Source: Cyanobacteriota bacterium
GTDB taxonomy: Bacteria; Cyanobacteriota; Cyanobacteriia; Thermostichales; Thermostichaceae
Length of the DNA stretch: 64,000 nt
Direction of reading: 5' to 3'
Assembly: GCA_033764955.1 (NCBI GenBank)
Contig: JANRIL010000032.1
Coordinates: 26,447-90,446, forward strand
Part shown: positions 44,771 through 63,799 of the stretch, piece by piece
Layout: each line of letters begins with the position of its first letter
Position numbering within the stretch: the stretch's first letter is position 1
Notes under the pieces: generated by a model
Seen by the model: only the letters and a program-made list of their open reading frames with translations
Told to the model about the DNA's origin: nothing
Databases searched by the model: none
Program-made: the position numbers and the translations under genes

Positions 44771-46300
44771 TTAGGGTTGCGGGTCAGCGATCAACTGAGC
44801 TTGCAGGCGGCGGGCGTGCTCAATATCGGTGAATGATCCCGTCCCTGTGGCCTGCCAGAGCAACAAAGCACTGTTGAGATCCCCCAAAATCAAGGGAGTG
44901 GCGGATCCCATGTTTAGCCTAGCTAAGGCTCGATAGTAGTAGGGATCCGGACGATAGGGTAGCCGTTCAATCGCCTCCGAATAGTCCGCGAAAGCCTCTG
45001 ACCACTGTTGCCGTGCTGCCCAAACTTGTCCCCGCAGCCAATAGGCTTCCGCTAGGGATCCCGTTTGGTTTTTCTGCAATCCGCTCTGGATGGCTTGGTT
45101 CGCATAGTGATGGGCGGCGGGCAGGTGCTCTTTCTGCATGAGAAGTTTGACCCACTCTAAGGTCAACGGCGGCAGTTGAGGATTGAGGGTAGCAAACATC
45201 TGCAAATCCTGTTCCGCCAAATCTAGCTCTCCCATCCGTCGATAAACCTGGCTACGCAGCCAATAGGCTTCAGCCAGTTGGGGATCCAGGGCAATAGCAA
45301 TGTCGAGATCTCGCCGCGCCGCTGCTAGATTGTGGGTAATCGCGGTGGCATCACTGGGCTGAGGGCGATGGGATCCCTCCAGGGATTGATGCCAGAAATG
45401 GTGGGCACGCTTCAGATAGTAAGAGGCGTCATCAGGAGCCTGCTGAACTTGCTGATTCAGTTGCTGCCCATAATCGACGTTGGCTTGTGAGCGATGGGTG
45501 GGTCGGGCGGCGATGGCTGTGGGGGGAAAGGTAGCTGTTGTGGAGGGGATCCCAACATTGGCCTCGGTCTGCCAAGTCAGGGTTGACTCTTGTTGCTTCA
45601 TCTGCCGCCATGCGCGGATCTGATAGGCTTGGTTACGAGCCACCCGTGCCTCTTCCCTTTTTCCCATAACCGCTGCTAAATCAGCACGATGTTGCCACAA
45701 CTCCGCCGACAGCGGATCATTCCACAACCCCGTCATCAGCGTGGCTTGAGCGGCTTGGGGATCCCCCATCTGCTGCTGCATGTCTGCTAGGGCTTGCCGT
45801 AGGGCAATATGGTTGGGATCGATAGCCAGGGATTGCTGGGCATCGGCACTAGCTGCTGCCAAATCACCCTTGAGGGCATAGGCTTGTGAGCGGAGGTGAT
45901 AAATGCGCGGGTTCTGGGGATCGAGAGCAAGCGCCTGAGTGAATTTGACAATGGCACAATGGCAATTGCCAGCAGCGAGATAGGCTTCCCCCCACTCCAC
46001 CCACAAATCAGCCGATTCAGGAGATTGGGCGACCACTCCGGCATAAAGCTGAATCGCCTTAGCATGGGATCCCTCTGCCATAGCCAGACGAGCCTGCTCT
46101 AGCCCTGATTTTTGAGTATCCTGTTTTAAACTTTCAAAATCCGCTTGCGGAAAACCAGACTGGGGTTGAGCAGCTTCACCAACAACCGCAGACTCTTTTT
46201 GCCCAGACTCAACTTGATTAGAGGAGGGTAATGCTTTCCACAAACAAACGCCAGCAACAAGGGAAAATGCCAGCAAAAGATTCGGCCTGAATAGCATCAT
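44771..46300 (-). CDS. Tetratricopeptide repeat protein
   Basis: Multiple TPR units (AEAYWLR..., AIALDP); signal-like N-terminus. Confidence 0.85.
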   Translation of the reverse strand: MMLFRPNLLLAFSLVAGVCLWKALPSSNQVESGQKESAVVGEAAQPQSGFPQADFESLKQDTQKSGLEQARLAMAEGSHAKAIQLYAGVVAQSPESADLWVEWGEAYLAAGNCHCAIVKFTQALALDPQNPRIYHLRSQAYALKGDLAAASADAQQSLAIDPNHIALRQALADMQQQMGDPQAAQATLMTGLWNDPLSAELWQHRADLAAVMGKREEARVARNQAYQIRAWRQMKQQESTLTWQTEANVGIPSTTATFPPTAIAARPTHRSQANVDYGQQLNQQVQQAPDDASYYLKRAHHFWHQSLEGSHRPQPSDATAITHNLAAARRDLDIAIALDPQLAEAYWLRSQVYRRMGELDLAEQDLQMFATLNPQLPPLTLEWVKLLMQKEHLPAAHHYANQAIQSGLQKNQTGSLAEAYWLRGQVWAARQQWSEAFADYSEAIERLPYRPDPYYYRALARLNMGSATPLILGDLNSALLLWQATGTGSFTDIEHARRLQAQLIADPQP

Positions 46301-46440: not shown

Positions 46441-46686
46441 CTAAGCTTGACGACCTTGCCGCCGTCGATCCCCAATCCCACAATCTCCACAACATTCCGG
46501 ACGCTTAAAATCATCCCAGTGAAGGCAGGCTCGACATCCCTTGGTCATTTCTGGCCAACGTTCTTGAATGAGTAATTGTCGTAATTTAACGTCTTGGGAT
46601 TCCGAAAAATGAGATTGTGATTGTGACCGTTCCATAACCCAACTCTGAAGCTCTTCCTCCGGTATAAGAGGTTTTATTGACGGCAT
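46441..46686 (-). CDS. Possible small Cys-rich protein (81 aa)
   Basis: Internal ATG of the 162-aa ORF; CRAC...CCGDC motif. Confidence 0.3.
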   Translation of the reverse strand: MPSIKPLIPEEELQSWVMERSQSQSHFSESQDVKLRQLLIQERWPEMTKGCRACLHWDDFKRPECCGDCGIGDRRRQGRQA

Positions 46687-46951
46687 TCTCAAACATTGGT
46701 ATGGCTTAAGAATTGAATTAGGTAGAGCTAATGAAATAAGGAAATGACCTATAAAATTTTGCACAAACAATGCAACAGGATAACATCTATAAATAAATGC
46801 TAAGAAATAAGTCGCAATTGTTATCGTGATCTCAGGATCCCCTGATGGAAGATGAGTTAGGCGTGGGATGGGAAATAGGGATAGGGATCCAAACCCTACG
46901 AATGGATCCCTGTGGATCCACGTAGTCAATCTTACTTAATCAGGATCCCAA

Positions 46952-47115
46952 TGGATCTAATCGGAATCGAACCGATACCTGCCCTGTGAGAGTCTCACTC
47001 ACACCTCATGCAAGTTTACAAAGCGTCTCTGTTTCTTCCTAACAAGAAGGTATGTAAGCTTTGTGGATCTGGGCACGAGTTGGTTATGGGCGCTCTACCC
47101 TAGAGCTATAGACCC
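46952..47115 (-). ncRNA. tRNA-like RNA (164 nt) with a G3:U70 acceptor and a 103-nt structured insert replacing the anticodon loop
   Basis: Acceptor GGGUCUA/UAGAUCC-A, D arm GCUC/GAGC, T arm AUCGG-UUCGAUU-CCGAU; no anticodon loop. Confidence 0.8.
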
Positions 47116-47222
47116 CAAAAATGTCAATGGATAGGATGAATTGCTTTTTATCAATACAACGGTAAATGATTGAACCCATTGAACAAAACCTGAGTCAGTC
47201 TTAACCACTCACCGAAGTGGAG

Positions 47223-47296
47223 ATGCGAGGGCAGGGCTTGAACCTGCAAACTCCTGGTTCAGAGCCAGGTGACTTTACCAATTCGTCTACCTCGCA
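47223..47296 (-). tRNA. tRNA-Gln(CUG), atypical; CCA not encoded
   Basis: UGCGAGG/CCUCGCA acceptor; CCUGG-CU-CUG-AA-CCAGG anticodon arm; GCAGG-UUCAAGC-CCUGC T arm. Confidence 0.85.
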
Positions 47297-47332
47297 GCCA
47301 AGTGGGGGCTAGCAAACCCGTTTGTGATGGGA

Positions 47333-47406
47333 TCCTCTCGACGGGACTTCAACCCGCAATCTTTGCTTTGAAGGAGCAATGGCTTAGTCGTTTCGCCTAC
47401 GAGAGG
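47333..47406 (-). tRNA. Aberrant tRNA-Glu(UUC)-like gene or pseudo-tRNA
   Basis: CCUCUCG/CGAGAGG acceptor; UUGCU-CC-UUC-AA-AGCAA arm with C33; T loop UUGAAGU; D loop lacks GG. Confidence 0.65.
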
Positions 47407-47516
47407 AGGAGCATTCCCTTAACAAAATACATGAGCAGTTAGCAAAAAACGAATCAACTATTTTCTCATCCATCAAACCAACCCATCAAATAGCTAGGTT
47501 ATTTAGGGATCCATCA

Positions 47517-47714
47517 TCACAAAAATAAAGCATGTTGCATTAAATATTGATGGCGAATCTTTTCCATTTCTAGGATGGCTTGAGCATGAGCTTGTTTAGC
47601 CAGTTGAGCTTGTTGGAGTTGCTCGGCCTGCTCTTGCTGCTTTTCTCGTGCTTTCTGTAGAGTGACTTGGTAGAGAATCCACTCGGATAGAGAGATTGTT
47701 TTTTGGACGAGCAT
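47517..47714 (-). CDS. Small hypothetical helical protein (65 aa)
   Basis: MLVQKTISLSEW...; Gln/Ala-rich coiled-coil; co-oriented with the operon. Confidence 0.55.
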   Translation of the reverse strand: MLVQKTISLSEWILYQVTLQKAREKQQEQAEQLQQAQLAKQAHAQAILEMEKIRHQYLMQHALFL

Positions 47715-48044
47715 AATATTTCCCTGAAACTCACTTCCTATGCAAATACTACAAATGTAATATGCCATTGTCAAGCTCCCAAAATTAAAAAAGGTCATAG
47801 ATATCATGAATAATTTAGATGGTGCTTAGGTGATTCTAAAACCAAGTTAGTTGGCTGATTATCCATGCAAAAATCTGATCGATATGAGGATCGATCAAGC
47901 CAACTTATTCATGAAAAACTCTCGATCAATAGTGAATTTTTGACTCAAATAGGGATCCCTTTTCTTCGCCGTGGAATAGCTCCTAACCATTGGGCGGAGC
48001 GAAGGGATCCCTTAGGTAACAGACAAGGAAACGAATGGATTGGT

Positions 48045-48425
48045 CTAGTTGTCGGGGGAATGGGTCATCATGGCTGTAGATCCTTCTGACAGTTGCCATA
48101 ACTGAAGAAGTTGTGCTTCTACAAGATGATCCAGAGCATCACAGACAAAAACACCTTCGGATCCCTGGGCATTACTGGATATCCACATTCCCTCTAAGCT
48201 GACCTCCAGATAATCGGTGTCACAAATATCGAGATCAATTTGTTCGGCAAGAGTTTCCAGCCCAGGCAAATCCGCAGGTAGCAGGAAGGAAGCCGCACTA
48301 CTTTCTATGACGAAAGGTTGATCTAGGCAGGCTGACAGAGATTGACGGATTGCTAACCAATCCTGCAAAGACTCCGCCACAATTTCAAGATAAATTCCAG
48401 TTTCGGTGTAGATCAATTTCAACAT
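48045..48425 (-). CDS. Alr0857-family protein
   Basis: MLKLIYTETG...LE, ASFLLPADLP, EVSLEGMW, EGVFV motifs recognised from this cyanobacterial family. Confidence 0.75.
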   Translation of the reverse strand: MLKLIYTETGIYLEIVAESLQDWLAIRQSLSACLDQPFVIESSAASFLLPADLPGLETLAEQIDLDICDTDYLEVSLEGMWISSNAQGSEGVFVCDALDHLVEAQLLQLWQLSEGSTAMMTHSPDN

Positions 48426-48449: not shown

Positions 48450-48968
48450 TTAAGGATGGTGATGATAATGGTCACGCCAAAACAATTCAGCAAAAGCAAC
48501 CGTGGGATGCATGGGAGCTTTGGGTTTGGTCAATAAGGGCATGGCAGCTTGTTCGGGGGTGCGGTTACCTTTGCGCTGGTTACAGGTTTCGCAAGCGGTA
48601 ACAAGGTTTTCCCAGGTATCTCTGCCCCCTTGCGAAAGTGGAATGACATGATCCAGAGTGAGGTGATGACCACAACCGCAGTATTGGCAGGTGTGGTGGT
48701 CTCGCCTAAACACGTCGCGGCGGTTGACCGCCGGAACCCTCCAGCCCCGTTCGCACCCTCTGGTCAGGAGGCGAATGTGTTCGGGAACCTCCAGCACCTG
48801 ATGGGCAGAACGGATCCGCCAGATCGGAACATTCATCAGTAGGAGGGGTTCGGCTTTGCCCGTCAGCAAAAGAACAATCGCCCGCTTGATGGGGATCCGG
48901 GTGATGGGCAAATAGTTTGGCGAAAAAACCACGATGGACGCTTGCAAAAAATGAGTGGCTACGGTCAT
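48450..48968 (-). CDS. HNH endonuclease (McrA-like)
   Basis: [11 protein letters not shown]...[13 protein letters not shown]...[25 protein letters not shown]. Confidence 0.93.
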
Positions 48969-63387: not shown

Positions 63388-63783
63388 GGGGCTGTAACGG
63401 TTTCGACGAGGTGGCGAACCAGGATTGATGATGCAGGTCGGGATTGAGCTTATCCCGTTATCAACAGGCTCAAAACAAGTACGTGCGAACAACGTCGTAC
63501 CCTTTGCTCGTAAAGCCGCCGTCTTGGCTGCCTAAGACTCAGATCCTAGTAGATTTTTGAGTTCGAGAATCCTCCGATGACTCCGTTAAATGGGAGGATT
63601 TAACCCCAACGGACGCTGCTCTAGGTCTTCTCCTCGGTCGAGACAGAGCCTAAGCCTAGACTGAGGAATCCTGCCACTGGGATCAATAGTGGACCTTGTT
63701 TCTAGGGTTTTAGAAACTAAACCTGTGAATGATTCAGTCCCCAATACCCATTTCGGACACGGGTTCGACTCCCGTCAGCTCCA
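63388..63783 (+). ncRNA. ssrA: tmRNA; tag ANNVVPFARKAAVLAA* at 63485..63535
   Basis: 5' GGGGCTGTAACGGTTTCGAC; 3' GGGTTCGACTCCCGTCAGCTCCA; cyanobacterial-type tag. Confidence 0.97.
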
Positions 63784-63799
63784 TAATTTGATAATCCAA

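Follow-up and report, generated by a model that had tools for sequence, protein, structure and literature searches.

A stretch of 64,000 nucleotides from a Cyanobacteriota bacterium of the Thermostichaceae (assembly GCA_033764955.1, contig JANRIL010000032.1, positions 26,447 to 90,446), hereafter the window, carries on one strand an HNH endonuclease gene, an alr0857-family gene, a tRNA-Glu gene, a tRNA-Gln gene and, last in the row, a 164-nt element, which the original prediction, made from the DNA letters alone, had described as a tRNA mimic with an alanine identity pair and a folded domain in place of the anticodon loop. This order is that of a reduced tRNA array, and by the same-strand run of tRNAs behind the HNH gene the element belongs to the long tRNA arrays of cyanobacteria. 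The HNH and alr0857-family genes lie upstream of large arrays in relatives, too, and there the element stands near the 3' end of 22-32 tRNA genes, usually in the order ...Arg(UCU)-Ala(UGC)-element-Ala(UGC)-Ser.... Arrays of this kind (L-arrays) have been reported to possess a conserved HNH gene, to be induced by translation inhibitors and to be co-regulated with rtcB (Santamaria-Gomez et al., PMC8421152). We propose that the element is a non-decoding chimera of an array tRNA-Ala and a Y-RNA-like stem-bulge-stem hairpin, which would be excised like a tRNA, is probably alanylated and would dock a Ro60-like ring protein; we put the probability of this reading at slightly under 0.6.

Read on the minus strand, the parts that had been predicted all lie where they had been placed (Table 1): the acceptor stem, the D stem with GG in its loop, the variable loop CAGGU, the T arm and the CCC/GGG remnant of the anticodon stem, from which an insert of 103 nt (47087..46985) opens. 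A 7-bp acceptor stem, a T arm with a UUCGAUU-type loop and a D arm with GG agree with what is expected of a tRNA, A14 apart. Within the insert, the helices H1 and H2 flank a large internal loop, H3 forms a tip hairpin resembling an anticodon stem-loop (CUUC-CUGUUAA-GAAG in most relatives), and H4 is a side hairpin, the loop of which may resemble a T-loop; UUACAUAC, between H2 and H3, is unpaired in the window element's fold. The nested helices of the insert were recovered by reading the sequence, by a minimum free energy (MFE) fold and by de novo RNAalifold. The MFE fold of the single sequence (-52.8 kcal/mol, z = -2.65, with 3 of 200 shuffles equally good) reproduces the helices and is by itself only modest evidence. 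We refer to the element's architecture as type C; CM R1, a covariance model (CM) built in this analysis, gives the window copy 154.6 bits.

Table 1. Parts of the type C element and neighbouring features in the window
Feature	Position	Strand	Basis
Whole element, 164 nt, tRNA-Ala-like body with a Y-RNA-like module replacing the anticodon arm	46952..47115	minus	sequence reading, MFE fold, CM R1
Acceptor 5' strand GGGUCUA, G3 at 47113	47109..47115	minus	sequence reading
Acceptor 3' strand UAGAUCC (46959-46953) and discriminator A73 (46952)	46952..46959	minus	sequence reading
D arm GCUC / UAGGGUA / GAGC, G18 G19 present, U in place of A14	47092..47106	minus	helix 2, 100% paired
Anticodon-stem remnant, 5' side CCC, 3 bp, partner 46982-46984	47088..47090	minus	helix 3, 2/3 pairs compensatory
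Anticodon-stem remnant, 3' side GGG	46982..46984	minus	model-aligned copies
Module helix H1, 5' strand CUCGUGC	47073..47079	minus	4/8 pairs compensatory; homologous to the outer helix of stand-alone module RNAs
Module helix H1, 3' strand GCAUGAG, conserved internal-loop ACUUG just before it	47005..47011	minus	alignments
Large internal loop, 5' side CCAGAUCC, family pattern CCCNNAY, candidate protein-contact bulge (putative role)	47065..47072	minus	alignments
Module helix H2, 5' strand ACAAAGC (47064-47058), and near-invariant UUACAUAC	47050..47064	minus	alignments
Module helix H2, 3' strand GCUUUGU	47018..47024	minus	model alignment and RNAalifold
Tip hairpin H3, anticodon-stem-loop-like, here CUUC-UUGUUAG-GAAG (CUUCUU/AGGAAG)	47035..47049	minus	alignments
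Side hairpin H4 UGUGAG-UGAGACU-CUCACA, loop pattern U-G-N-R-A-Y-U, beside GGG	46986..47003	minus	helix 7, 5/6 pairs compensatory, 100% paired
Variable loop CAGGU and canonical T arm AUCGG-UUCGAUU-CCGAU	46960..46981	minus	helix 8
tRNA-Gln(CUG), directly upstream of the element	47222..47296	minus	ARAGORN, Rfam 65.2 bits
tRNA-Glu(UUC), first gene of the mini-array	47330..47407	minus	ARAGORN, Rfam 52.6 bits
alr0857-family gene	48045..48425	minus	NF045647, 110 bits here, 143.6 bits in L043
HNH endonuclease gene, conserved upstream neighbour of long tRNA arrays	48450..48968	minus	PMC8421152
tmRNA with the same alanine marks	63388-63786		ARAGORN and Rfam
Promoter-like site TTGACA-17-TAGTAT	47746..47774	minus	consensus match only

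No family is matched at the element in Rfam and standard ARAGORN scans. Standard ARAGORN, the Rfam tRNA model and Rfam at gathering thresholds leave it uncalled, and Rfam extended to an E-value of 10 returned only chance-level matches there, to the Plastid-ycf2 model (18.9 bits) and to mir-3931. A canonical decoding tRNA was therefore rejected, with 3 bp of the anticodon stem left, no ARAGORN or Rfam tRNA call and inconsistent anticodons when introns are allowed for. The tmRNA models of Rfam and ARAGORN have no match at the element either, the 103-nt insert being a nested hairpin fold, and a tmRNA-like tag frame starting in GCAAAGCUUACAUACUAA was discarded because its stop is not conserved (the window copy has none) and because sister architectures have this stretch in base pairs; the tmRNA that had been noted elsewhere in the window does carry the same alanine marks. 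A tRNA bearing a group I intron was likewise rejected, as no intron family is found in Rfam up to that E-value and the 103-nt insert leaves no anticodon loop.

More generally, the insert, or part of it, might be removed, for instance by an endonuclease and RtcB-type ligation, to give a working tRNA. The insert does occupy the usual tRNA intron site, long variants of the element keep a full anticodon stem of 5-6 bp, and in Anabaena the regulation of rtcB is shared with arrays of this kind (PMC8421152), but no conserved anticodon loop can be recovered among the homologues after any excision: in its intron mode ARAGORN places its call for the window copy on precisely 46952..47115 but reads it as Glu(CUC), with a mismatched stem of 4 bp, leaves the close homologue L017 uncalled and reads the long variant L024 as Arg(UCU). 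Since, in addition, no group I/II intron or ribozyme matches in Rfam up to E-value 10, H4 and the junction covary within one fold, and the insert is homologous to hairpins that stand free outside tRNAs, we regard removal of the insert as very improbable. The claim that the element is neither a tmRNA nor an intron-containing tRNA is upheld by the missing tmRNA match, the missing group I core and the lack of a conserved anticodon.

The window's genome (48 contigs, 89% complete) contains a single copy of the 164 nt, and hence the element is not a dispersed repeat. A search of 61 relatives yielded five full-length copies, 74-77% identical, in two genomes that belong to other families; the match corresponds exactly to the predicted RNA (query 16-179 of 201), and the flanks are unrelated. 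Matches occur in 22 of 401 sampled cyanobacterial genomes of the class, four of them partial (G243, G348, G369 and a split match in G343). A pattern scan with one genome per species returned 53 loci, comprising 21 with the full element by CM R1, 26 with module-only or tandem forms and six with titles of non-cyanobacterial metagenome-assembled genomes, which have no CM match and are taken as chance pattern matches; a pattern scan of viral contigs gave 0 matches. The element is held mainly by Leptolyngbya-like, Coleofasciculaceae, Microcoleaceae and Calothrix genomes. Among sequencing runs, a search brought up a single soil DNA run, with 0.04 of the words, and no RNA run.

When 25 copies are aligned to the model, 98.2% of the cells are paired and 18 of the 45 pairs have changed on both sides; none of 500 column shuffles attains any of five measures, and structures slid by 1-3 columns pair 33-45%. 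The sequences are related and this alignment is fitted to the model, and because of the latter 12 diverse copies were also aligned with MAFFT alone and folded with RNAalifold, which found the same eight helices de novo, with 12 of the 45 pairs compensatory. The most convincing single helix is H4, with compensatory changes in five of its six pairs and none broken. The supposition that the insert is a structured module under selection is thus borne out by both tests, and in the model built from cyanobacterial homologues the insert helices covary while G3:U70 is conserved.

These observations also bear on whether the element could be a dead gene, i.e. a tRNA-Ala pseudogene broken by a mobile hairpin or a miniature inverted-repeat transposable element (MITE) and carried along as a passive passenger of a mobile array. 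Long arrays often contain insertions, duplications and pseudogenes, and 3 of 26 array genes were undetected in Anabaena (PMC8421152); truncated copies exist here as well, with 24 nt missing at loci L029/L083 and fragments in genomes G369 and G243. A dead gene is nevertheless hardly credible in view of the single copy in the window's genome, the identity of 74-77% kept between families, the compensatory changes that affect insert and tRNA part alike, and a conserved span that ends exactly at the RNA ends. A MITE or other repeat was rejected for a related reason, as the full element is single-copy in the window's genome and has only two module-only relatives there, both beside a Ro60-like gene. 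On this comparative evidence we conclude that the element is a genuine, conserved, selected, non-decoding RNA gene.

The family also contains a long subfamily of 215-218 nt (L024:1278-1495, L034:610-825, L028:1670-1884 and L063:511-728), which keeps an anticodon stem of 5-6 bp and has an insert of ~75 nt at the module tip in place of the small hairpin; at L024 and L063 the long form stands in tandem with the standard form. At L033 a type C element carries a whole tRNA-like unit at its tip.

The alanine marks seen in the window copy are conserved throughout the family, G3:U70 and A73 being present in 33 of 33 distinct copies. The acceptor stem is fully paired in 29 of these, and CCA is encoded after A73 in 16; the window copy has no encoded CCA, and the bases following its A73 are UUG. 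Alanyl-tRNA synthetase (AlaRS) requires little more than G3:U70, A73 and a CCA end, and the family thus has the marks of an AlaRS substrate. The acceptor is moreover the least variable helix, with 6 of its 7 pairs invariant as compared with compensatory change in 17 of the 38 other pairs, and in the long variant L028:1670-1884 (GAGUUCG/CGAAUUC) three other acceptor pairs are compensated while the 3:70 wobble is unchanged. Chimeras with a tRNA identity other than alanine were looked for and none was found; at L052 and L069, where the full model matches with a low score, module RNAs stand in tandem.

In its acceptor 5' strand and T arm the element agrees with the tRNA-Ala(UGC) directly upstream in large arrays, and the anticodon stem of the long variants resembles that of the same tRNA; therefore, the element descends from an array tRNA-Ala in which the anticodon loop was replaced. 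The acceptor 3' strand of this tRNA-Ala(UGC) (L017:1419-1495, L024:1196-1272 and equivalents) contains one additional A, as a result of which ARAGORN draws G2·U71 and a G3·A70 mismatch, and G3:U70 is cleaner in the chimera than in its decoding neighbour.

Alternatively, the tRNA body might be a natural scaffold and nothing else, serving excision by RNase P and RNase Z and stability, with G3:U70 as baggage or a processing feature, an RNA that is never charged, and a hairpin that acts as ligand or sponge of the Ro60-like protein. Engineered 'tRNA scaffolds', in which a structured foreign RNA takes the place of the anticodon arm and is processed and stabilised like a tRNA, are a laboratory design of which the element would be a natural counterpart, with the difference that its aminoacylation identity is conserved. 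That the hairpin also exists independently, so that the tRNA part is dispensable for the module, that a place in a polycistronic tRNA array makes tRNA-type excision the obvious route of maturation, and that a D loop without A14 hints at relaxed tRNA constraints, all fit a scaffold. Processing alone, however, would accept G-C or A-U at 3:70, and neither the near-fixed acceptor stem nor a G·U wobble kept in every copy, even where three other acceptor pairs have changed, would then be expected. We consider a scaffold without charging unlikely, and favour the chimera with a probably alanylated acceptor.

Searches with nhmmer and the CM gave matches to model positions 36-114 that stand alone, and a profile of the element also matched further places in the same loci over its positions ~33-116 only. 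They delimit a module, composed of H1, the bulge, H2 and UACAUAC, that underlies four architectures (A-D) and is the only part common to all of them. Architecture A is a tRNA-like unit in circular permutation (T arm, closed acceptor stem-loop, D arm) that is closed by the module. In architecture B the module is continuous with an acceptor stem (CAUAC/GUAUG) that belongs to a tRNA-like unit of normal order, the 'anticodon' of which differs among orthologues (UAU, CAU, CAA, UUU, UGA). Architecture C is the element itself, with the module inserted in a tRNA-Ala body, and architecture D is a lone hairpin of ~70 nt, tipped by a 4-5-bp stem and a 7-nt loop of anticodon form (CUNNNAA or CUNNNAC). The position of H3 is thus occupied by a whole tRNA-like unit in other architectures, and the CCCNNAY bulge and UACAUAC remain constant through all four irrespective of what they pair with. 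The full length of the Rfam YrlA model can be aligned with architecture A (in the core of T arm, acceptor stem-loop and D arm), with 26.6-32.6 bits against a gathering score of 69, and architecture A is therefore weakly YrlA-like and, by Rfam's rule, not a member. These alignments show the element's insert to be homologous to the stand-alone hairpins and to the stems of the weak YrlA-like matches.

The module RNAs lead to a gene for a protein of 477 amino acids (aa). Downstream of large arrays there follow a small open reading frame (ORF) ending in ...LIIRPEAVYG, then architectures A and/or B, in some cases a gene for endonuclease V, and then the gene for the 477-aa protein, while all 23 architecture D hairpins from the pattern scan lie 30-210 nt upstream of its start codon, on the same strand. 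Public records call this protein hypothetical or 'vWA domain protein', and Pfam and NCBIfam give weak vWA matches only; among 27 remote homologues Pfam vWA_Ro60 exceeds its cut-off in one and is sub-threshold in six. Among cluster representatives, 1230 relatives were retrieved by profile at E <= 1e-3. AlphaFold2 with a 69-sequence alignment, used in place of 16 near-identical sequences that gave a predicted local distance difference test (pLDDT) score of 55.5, returned a model with pLDDT 90.1 and a predicted template modelling score (pTM) of 0.77. Foldseek against the Protein Data Bank (PDB) placed Ro60, Rsr or TROVE structures at ranks 1-12, all full length and with E-values of 3e-12 to 2e-10, headed by D. 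radiodurans Rsr (E 3.4e-12, TM 0.61) and followed by the Ro60 proteins of Xenopus, human and a Thermus phage; vWA domains of the ordinary kind start only at E 1.7e-5. In the ESM Atlas the protein is adjacent to TROVE clusters (score 0.95, 191 shared features). In the predicted structure, the 477-aa protein clearly folds as Ro60/Rsr.

The element and this gene keep company. In 13 genomes, a total of 15 element copies precede the Ro60-like gene on its own strand at a distance of 0.7-2.8 kb, and across the 401 genomes, in which relatives are not independent, the gene is present in 21 of the 22 with an element and in 23 of the 379 others; the exception, G340, has insertion sequence transposases at the expected place. 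In the window's genome the Ro60-like gene (C30:17252-18676, 69% identity) is on contig 30, with two module RNAs about 1.5 kb upstream. The order on this contig (L109:1501-1785; L051:157-2931) is the LIIRPEAVYG small ORF, two module RNAs, an AAA ATPase gene, the Ro60-fold gene and a methyltransferase gene, and one of the two module RNAs is of architecture B, its tRNA-like unit having a CAA 'anticodon'. Elsewhere, the gene for the 477-aa protein is followed by genes for Tpt1/KptA, GNAT, NADAR, an RNase T-like exonuclease, a nucleotidyltransferase with a PolyA_pol head and DUF4291, a conserved block of RNA-end chemistry that, from its gene content, looks like an RNA repair island. Examples of the block, to which endonuclease V also belongs, are L043:12668-15970, L044:12952-16097 and L045:9227-13450; Tpt1/KptA is a 2'-phosphotransferase.

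The position of the free hairpins would fit a 5' untranslated region (UTR) equally well, and one could thus regard the leader hairpin as an autoregulatory operator bound by its own Ro60-like product, with the tRNA-borne copy as a sponge acting in trans when the array is induced; that the module alone is common to all architectures accords with this. At other loci, however, two to three module RNAs stand in tandem with genes between them and the Ro60-like gene, such as the AAA ATPase gene in the window's genome, which is a better fit to separate Y-RNA-like genes, and the conserved alanine identity would be left unexplained. An operator with its decoy appears to us distinctly less plausible than an uncharged scaffold. 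The suggestions of a nuclease decoy or a role in rescue that accompanied the original prediction are speculation.

With respect to known systems, the closest known kind is, judging from the shared module, the bacterial Y RNA or YrlA tRNA mimic and not an orphan class, because the insert corresponds to the stem module found in the Y-RNA-like companions of a Ro60-like protein. The statement that the element fits none of the known classes therefore stands for tRNA, tmRNA and intron-containing tRNA, and fails in so far as it placed the element outside known kinds. Y-RNA-like genes with a stem-bulge-stem shape are described upstream of Ro60 genes (PMC12135203), and the Y RNA stem contacts Ro60 mainly via its 5' strand (PMC4201824; PMC12135203). 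In YrlA (RF02553) a domain of T and D arms is attached, via the position of the anticodon stem, to the stem that contacts Ro60, and the M. smegmatis YrlA is cut by RNase P in the acceptor loop and gains CCA, which gives it a free acceptor end (PMC4201824). YrlA is encoded near a Ro60-type gene; 15 copies of the element lie close to a gene that is Ro60-like by predicted fold, and the window copy is on another contig than that gene. The two differ in that YrlA is permuted, with its own ends in the Ro60 stem, whereas the element has the normal order of a tRNA, free acceptor ends and a closed distal hairpin, possesses the alanine identity set, lacks GNCGAAN0-1G and resides inside a tRNA array. In effect, the element would be the un-permuted counterpart of the processed M. 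smegmatis YrlA; at other loci it has permuted, YrlA-like versions (architecture A) as neighbours. Chen et al. 2014 (PMC4201824) noted that cyanobacteria yielded few YrlA RNAs.

Three further comparisons are instructive. The tRNA-like domain of tmRNA shares with the element an acceptor with G3:U70 and A73, a T arm, a long helix in place of the anticodon arm and a non-decoding character; the element differs by having neither a tag reading frame nor pseudoknots, by its full D stem and by its size (164 nt versus about 400 nt). The Yrn1-type Y RNAs of Deinococcus and Yrl1/Yrl2 of phage phiLo are stem-bulge-stem RNAs located just upstream of a Ro60 gene, often in tandem (PMC4201824; PMC12135203), a layout shared by the free hairpins and the acceptor-joined tRNA-like units found here. 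Their bulge is CGAA while ours is CCCNNAY, the protein here is too divergent for Pfam TROVE, and, unlike the element, they are never embedded in a tRNA. Finally, the L-arrays, such as the trn operon of Anabaena PCC 7120, agree with our loci in gene order and in the upstream HNH gene; they are repressed, are induced by translational stress and commonly have RNA-processing genes nearby (PMC8421152, PMC10272220). The main text of both reports, together with a part of the PMC8421152 supplement that does not include the array maps of Supplementary Figure S8, names no tRNA-like chimera, Ro60, TROVE or Y RNA; the terms TROVE, Ro60, Y RNA, vWA and Tpt1 do not occur in the text of PMC8421152, and the gene list of the Anabaena operon in the consulted part of its supplement has ordinary tRNAs only. 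The text available from a 2026 preprint on three tRNA-mimic families covers other RNAs (skipping-rope, DUF2693-FD and salivarius-1), and a literature search found no description of this chimera, of a Ro60-type protein in these arrays or of an aminoacylatable Y RNA.

As to mechanism, we envisage that the element is transcribed together with the tRNA array and induced by translational stress as in related arrays, that RNase P and the tRNA 3'-end machinery excise it as they would the neighbouring tRNAs, and that CCA is added where it is not encoded. The long arm would then dock the Ro60-like ring via the CCCNNAY bulge and the UACAUAC stretch, which are candidate contacts because they stay constant in all four architectures whatever their pairing. 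The free acceptor marked by G3:U70 would be charged by AlaRS and/or be recognised by tRNA-handling proteins, and the RNA would thereby tether the Ro60-like protein to tRNA and the translation machinery, in the way that Ro60 is linked to an effector by other Y RNAs. A charged end might be used for delivery to EF-Tu and the ribosome, as a handle for tRNA enzymes, or for stability alone.

Several observations weigh against this reading. On the RNA side, the Rfam YrlA model (RF02553) has no match on the element and scores the sister RNAs far below its gathering score, and the published Ro60-contact motifs GNCGAAN0-1G, GGUCCGA and CGAA (PMC4201824; PMC12135203) are missing from the element, the bulge of which is CCCNNAY. 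Position 14 is U in most aligned copies and G in three, so that the near-universal A14 is missing and the D arm is not fully canonical. The number of independent lineages is small, since most copies are 90-96% identical; about 6-8 are informative (the window, L032, L030/L039, L011, L033, L012, the main group and the long variants). On the protein side, kinship with Ro60 is one of predicted fold and not of sequence: phmmer and profile searches of the PDB with the 477-aa protein found no Ro60, and Pfam TROVE matches 0 of the 27 remote homologues. As for the linkage, the element and the Ro60-like gene are on different contigs in the window's genome, and the free hairpin upstream of the Ro60-like gene might be an mRNA leader instead of a separate RNA.

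A bolder version, which we hold to be doubtful, is that the element represents the first aminoacylatable Y RNA. AlaRS would charge it, and EF-Tu or another reader of aminoacyl-tRNA would deliver the Ro60-like ring, as tmRNA delivers SmpB, to tRNA-repair enzymes or to ribosomes that are stalled or damaged. If this holds true, cyanobacterial tRNA arrays would constitute one arm of a Ro60-based island of RNA surveillance and repair that translational stress switches on.

The purpose of the tRNA-like domains of Y RNAs is an open question, and a Y-type stem grafted onto a normally ordered tRNA, with the alanine pair in every copy, may offer an approach to it, as the tRNA half can be tested with AlaRS, EF-Tu or RNase P and the stem with Ro60. 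The element further connects the stress-induced long tRNA arrays with Ro60/Y-RNA quality control, two subjects that have so far been studied apart, and draws attention to an overlooked, putative Ro60-like family, missed by Pfam TROVE, with its RNA partners inside tRNA-array islands. It also points to a gap in annotation, in that standard tRNA and Rfam pipelines pass over the element as well as architectures A, B and D.

The promoter-like site upstream of the mini-array should be viewed in light of the finding that such sites are no more numerous in the region than in shuffles. Its -10 lies within TTACATTTGTAGTAT, which with three flanking bases agrees at 14 of 18 positions (47746-47763, hand count) with the reverse complement of the TrcR operator, the sequence of which was taken from PMC10272220. 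This likeness suggests the same stress-responsive repression as in Anabaena and is only a lead. When the small ORF at 47517-47714, upstream of tRNA-Glu, was compared by BLASTP with an ORF of 72 aa in front of a large array, no similarity was seen.

Both tRNAs of the mini-array are unusual: tRNA-Glu(UUC) starts with C1-G72 in the Rfam alignment, to which ARAGORN in intron mode adds a U-A pair to give an 8-bp stem, and tRNA-Gln(CUG) has U1-A72 and a discriminator U. Some tRNAs of the large arrays (Arg(ACG), Met(CAU) and others, by ARAGORN/Rfam) measure 93-100 nt, i.e. about 20-25 nt more than usual, for example at L044:5583-5682, L046:12231-12330, L046:12867-12962, L019:1398-1491 and L023:1210-1302. 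Downstream of the element, at a distance of 23 nt, there starts an ORF of 162 aa with a TTG codon (46441-46929, minus strand), which neither Pfam nor NCBIfam matches and which is perhaps not a gene. For the palindrome GGGATCCC, 84 occurrences were counted in the 64 kb as against about 2 expected (e.g. at 47952-47959, 48004-48011 and 46066-46073); it is a highly iterated palindrome of the window's genome, and several GGATCC cores are clustered just downstream of the element, at 46830-46945.

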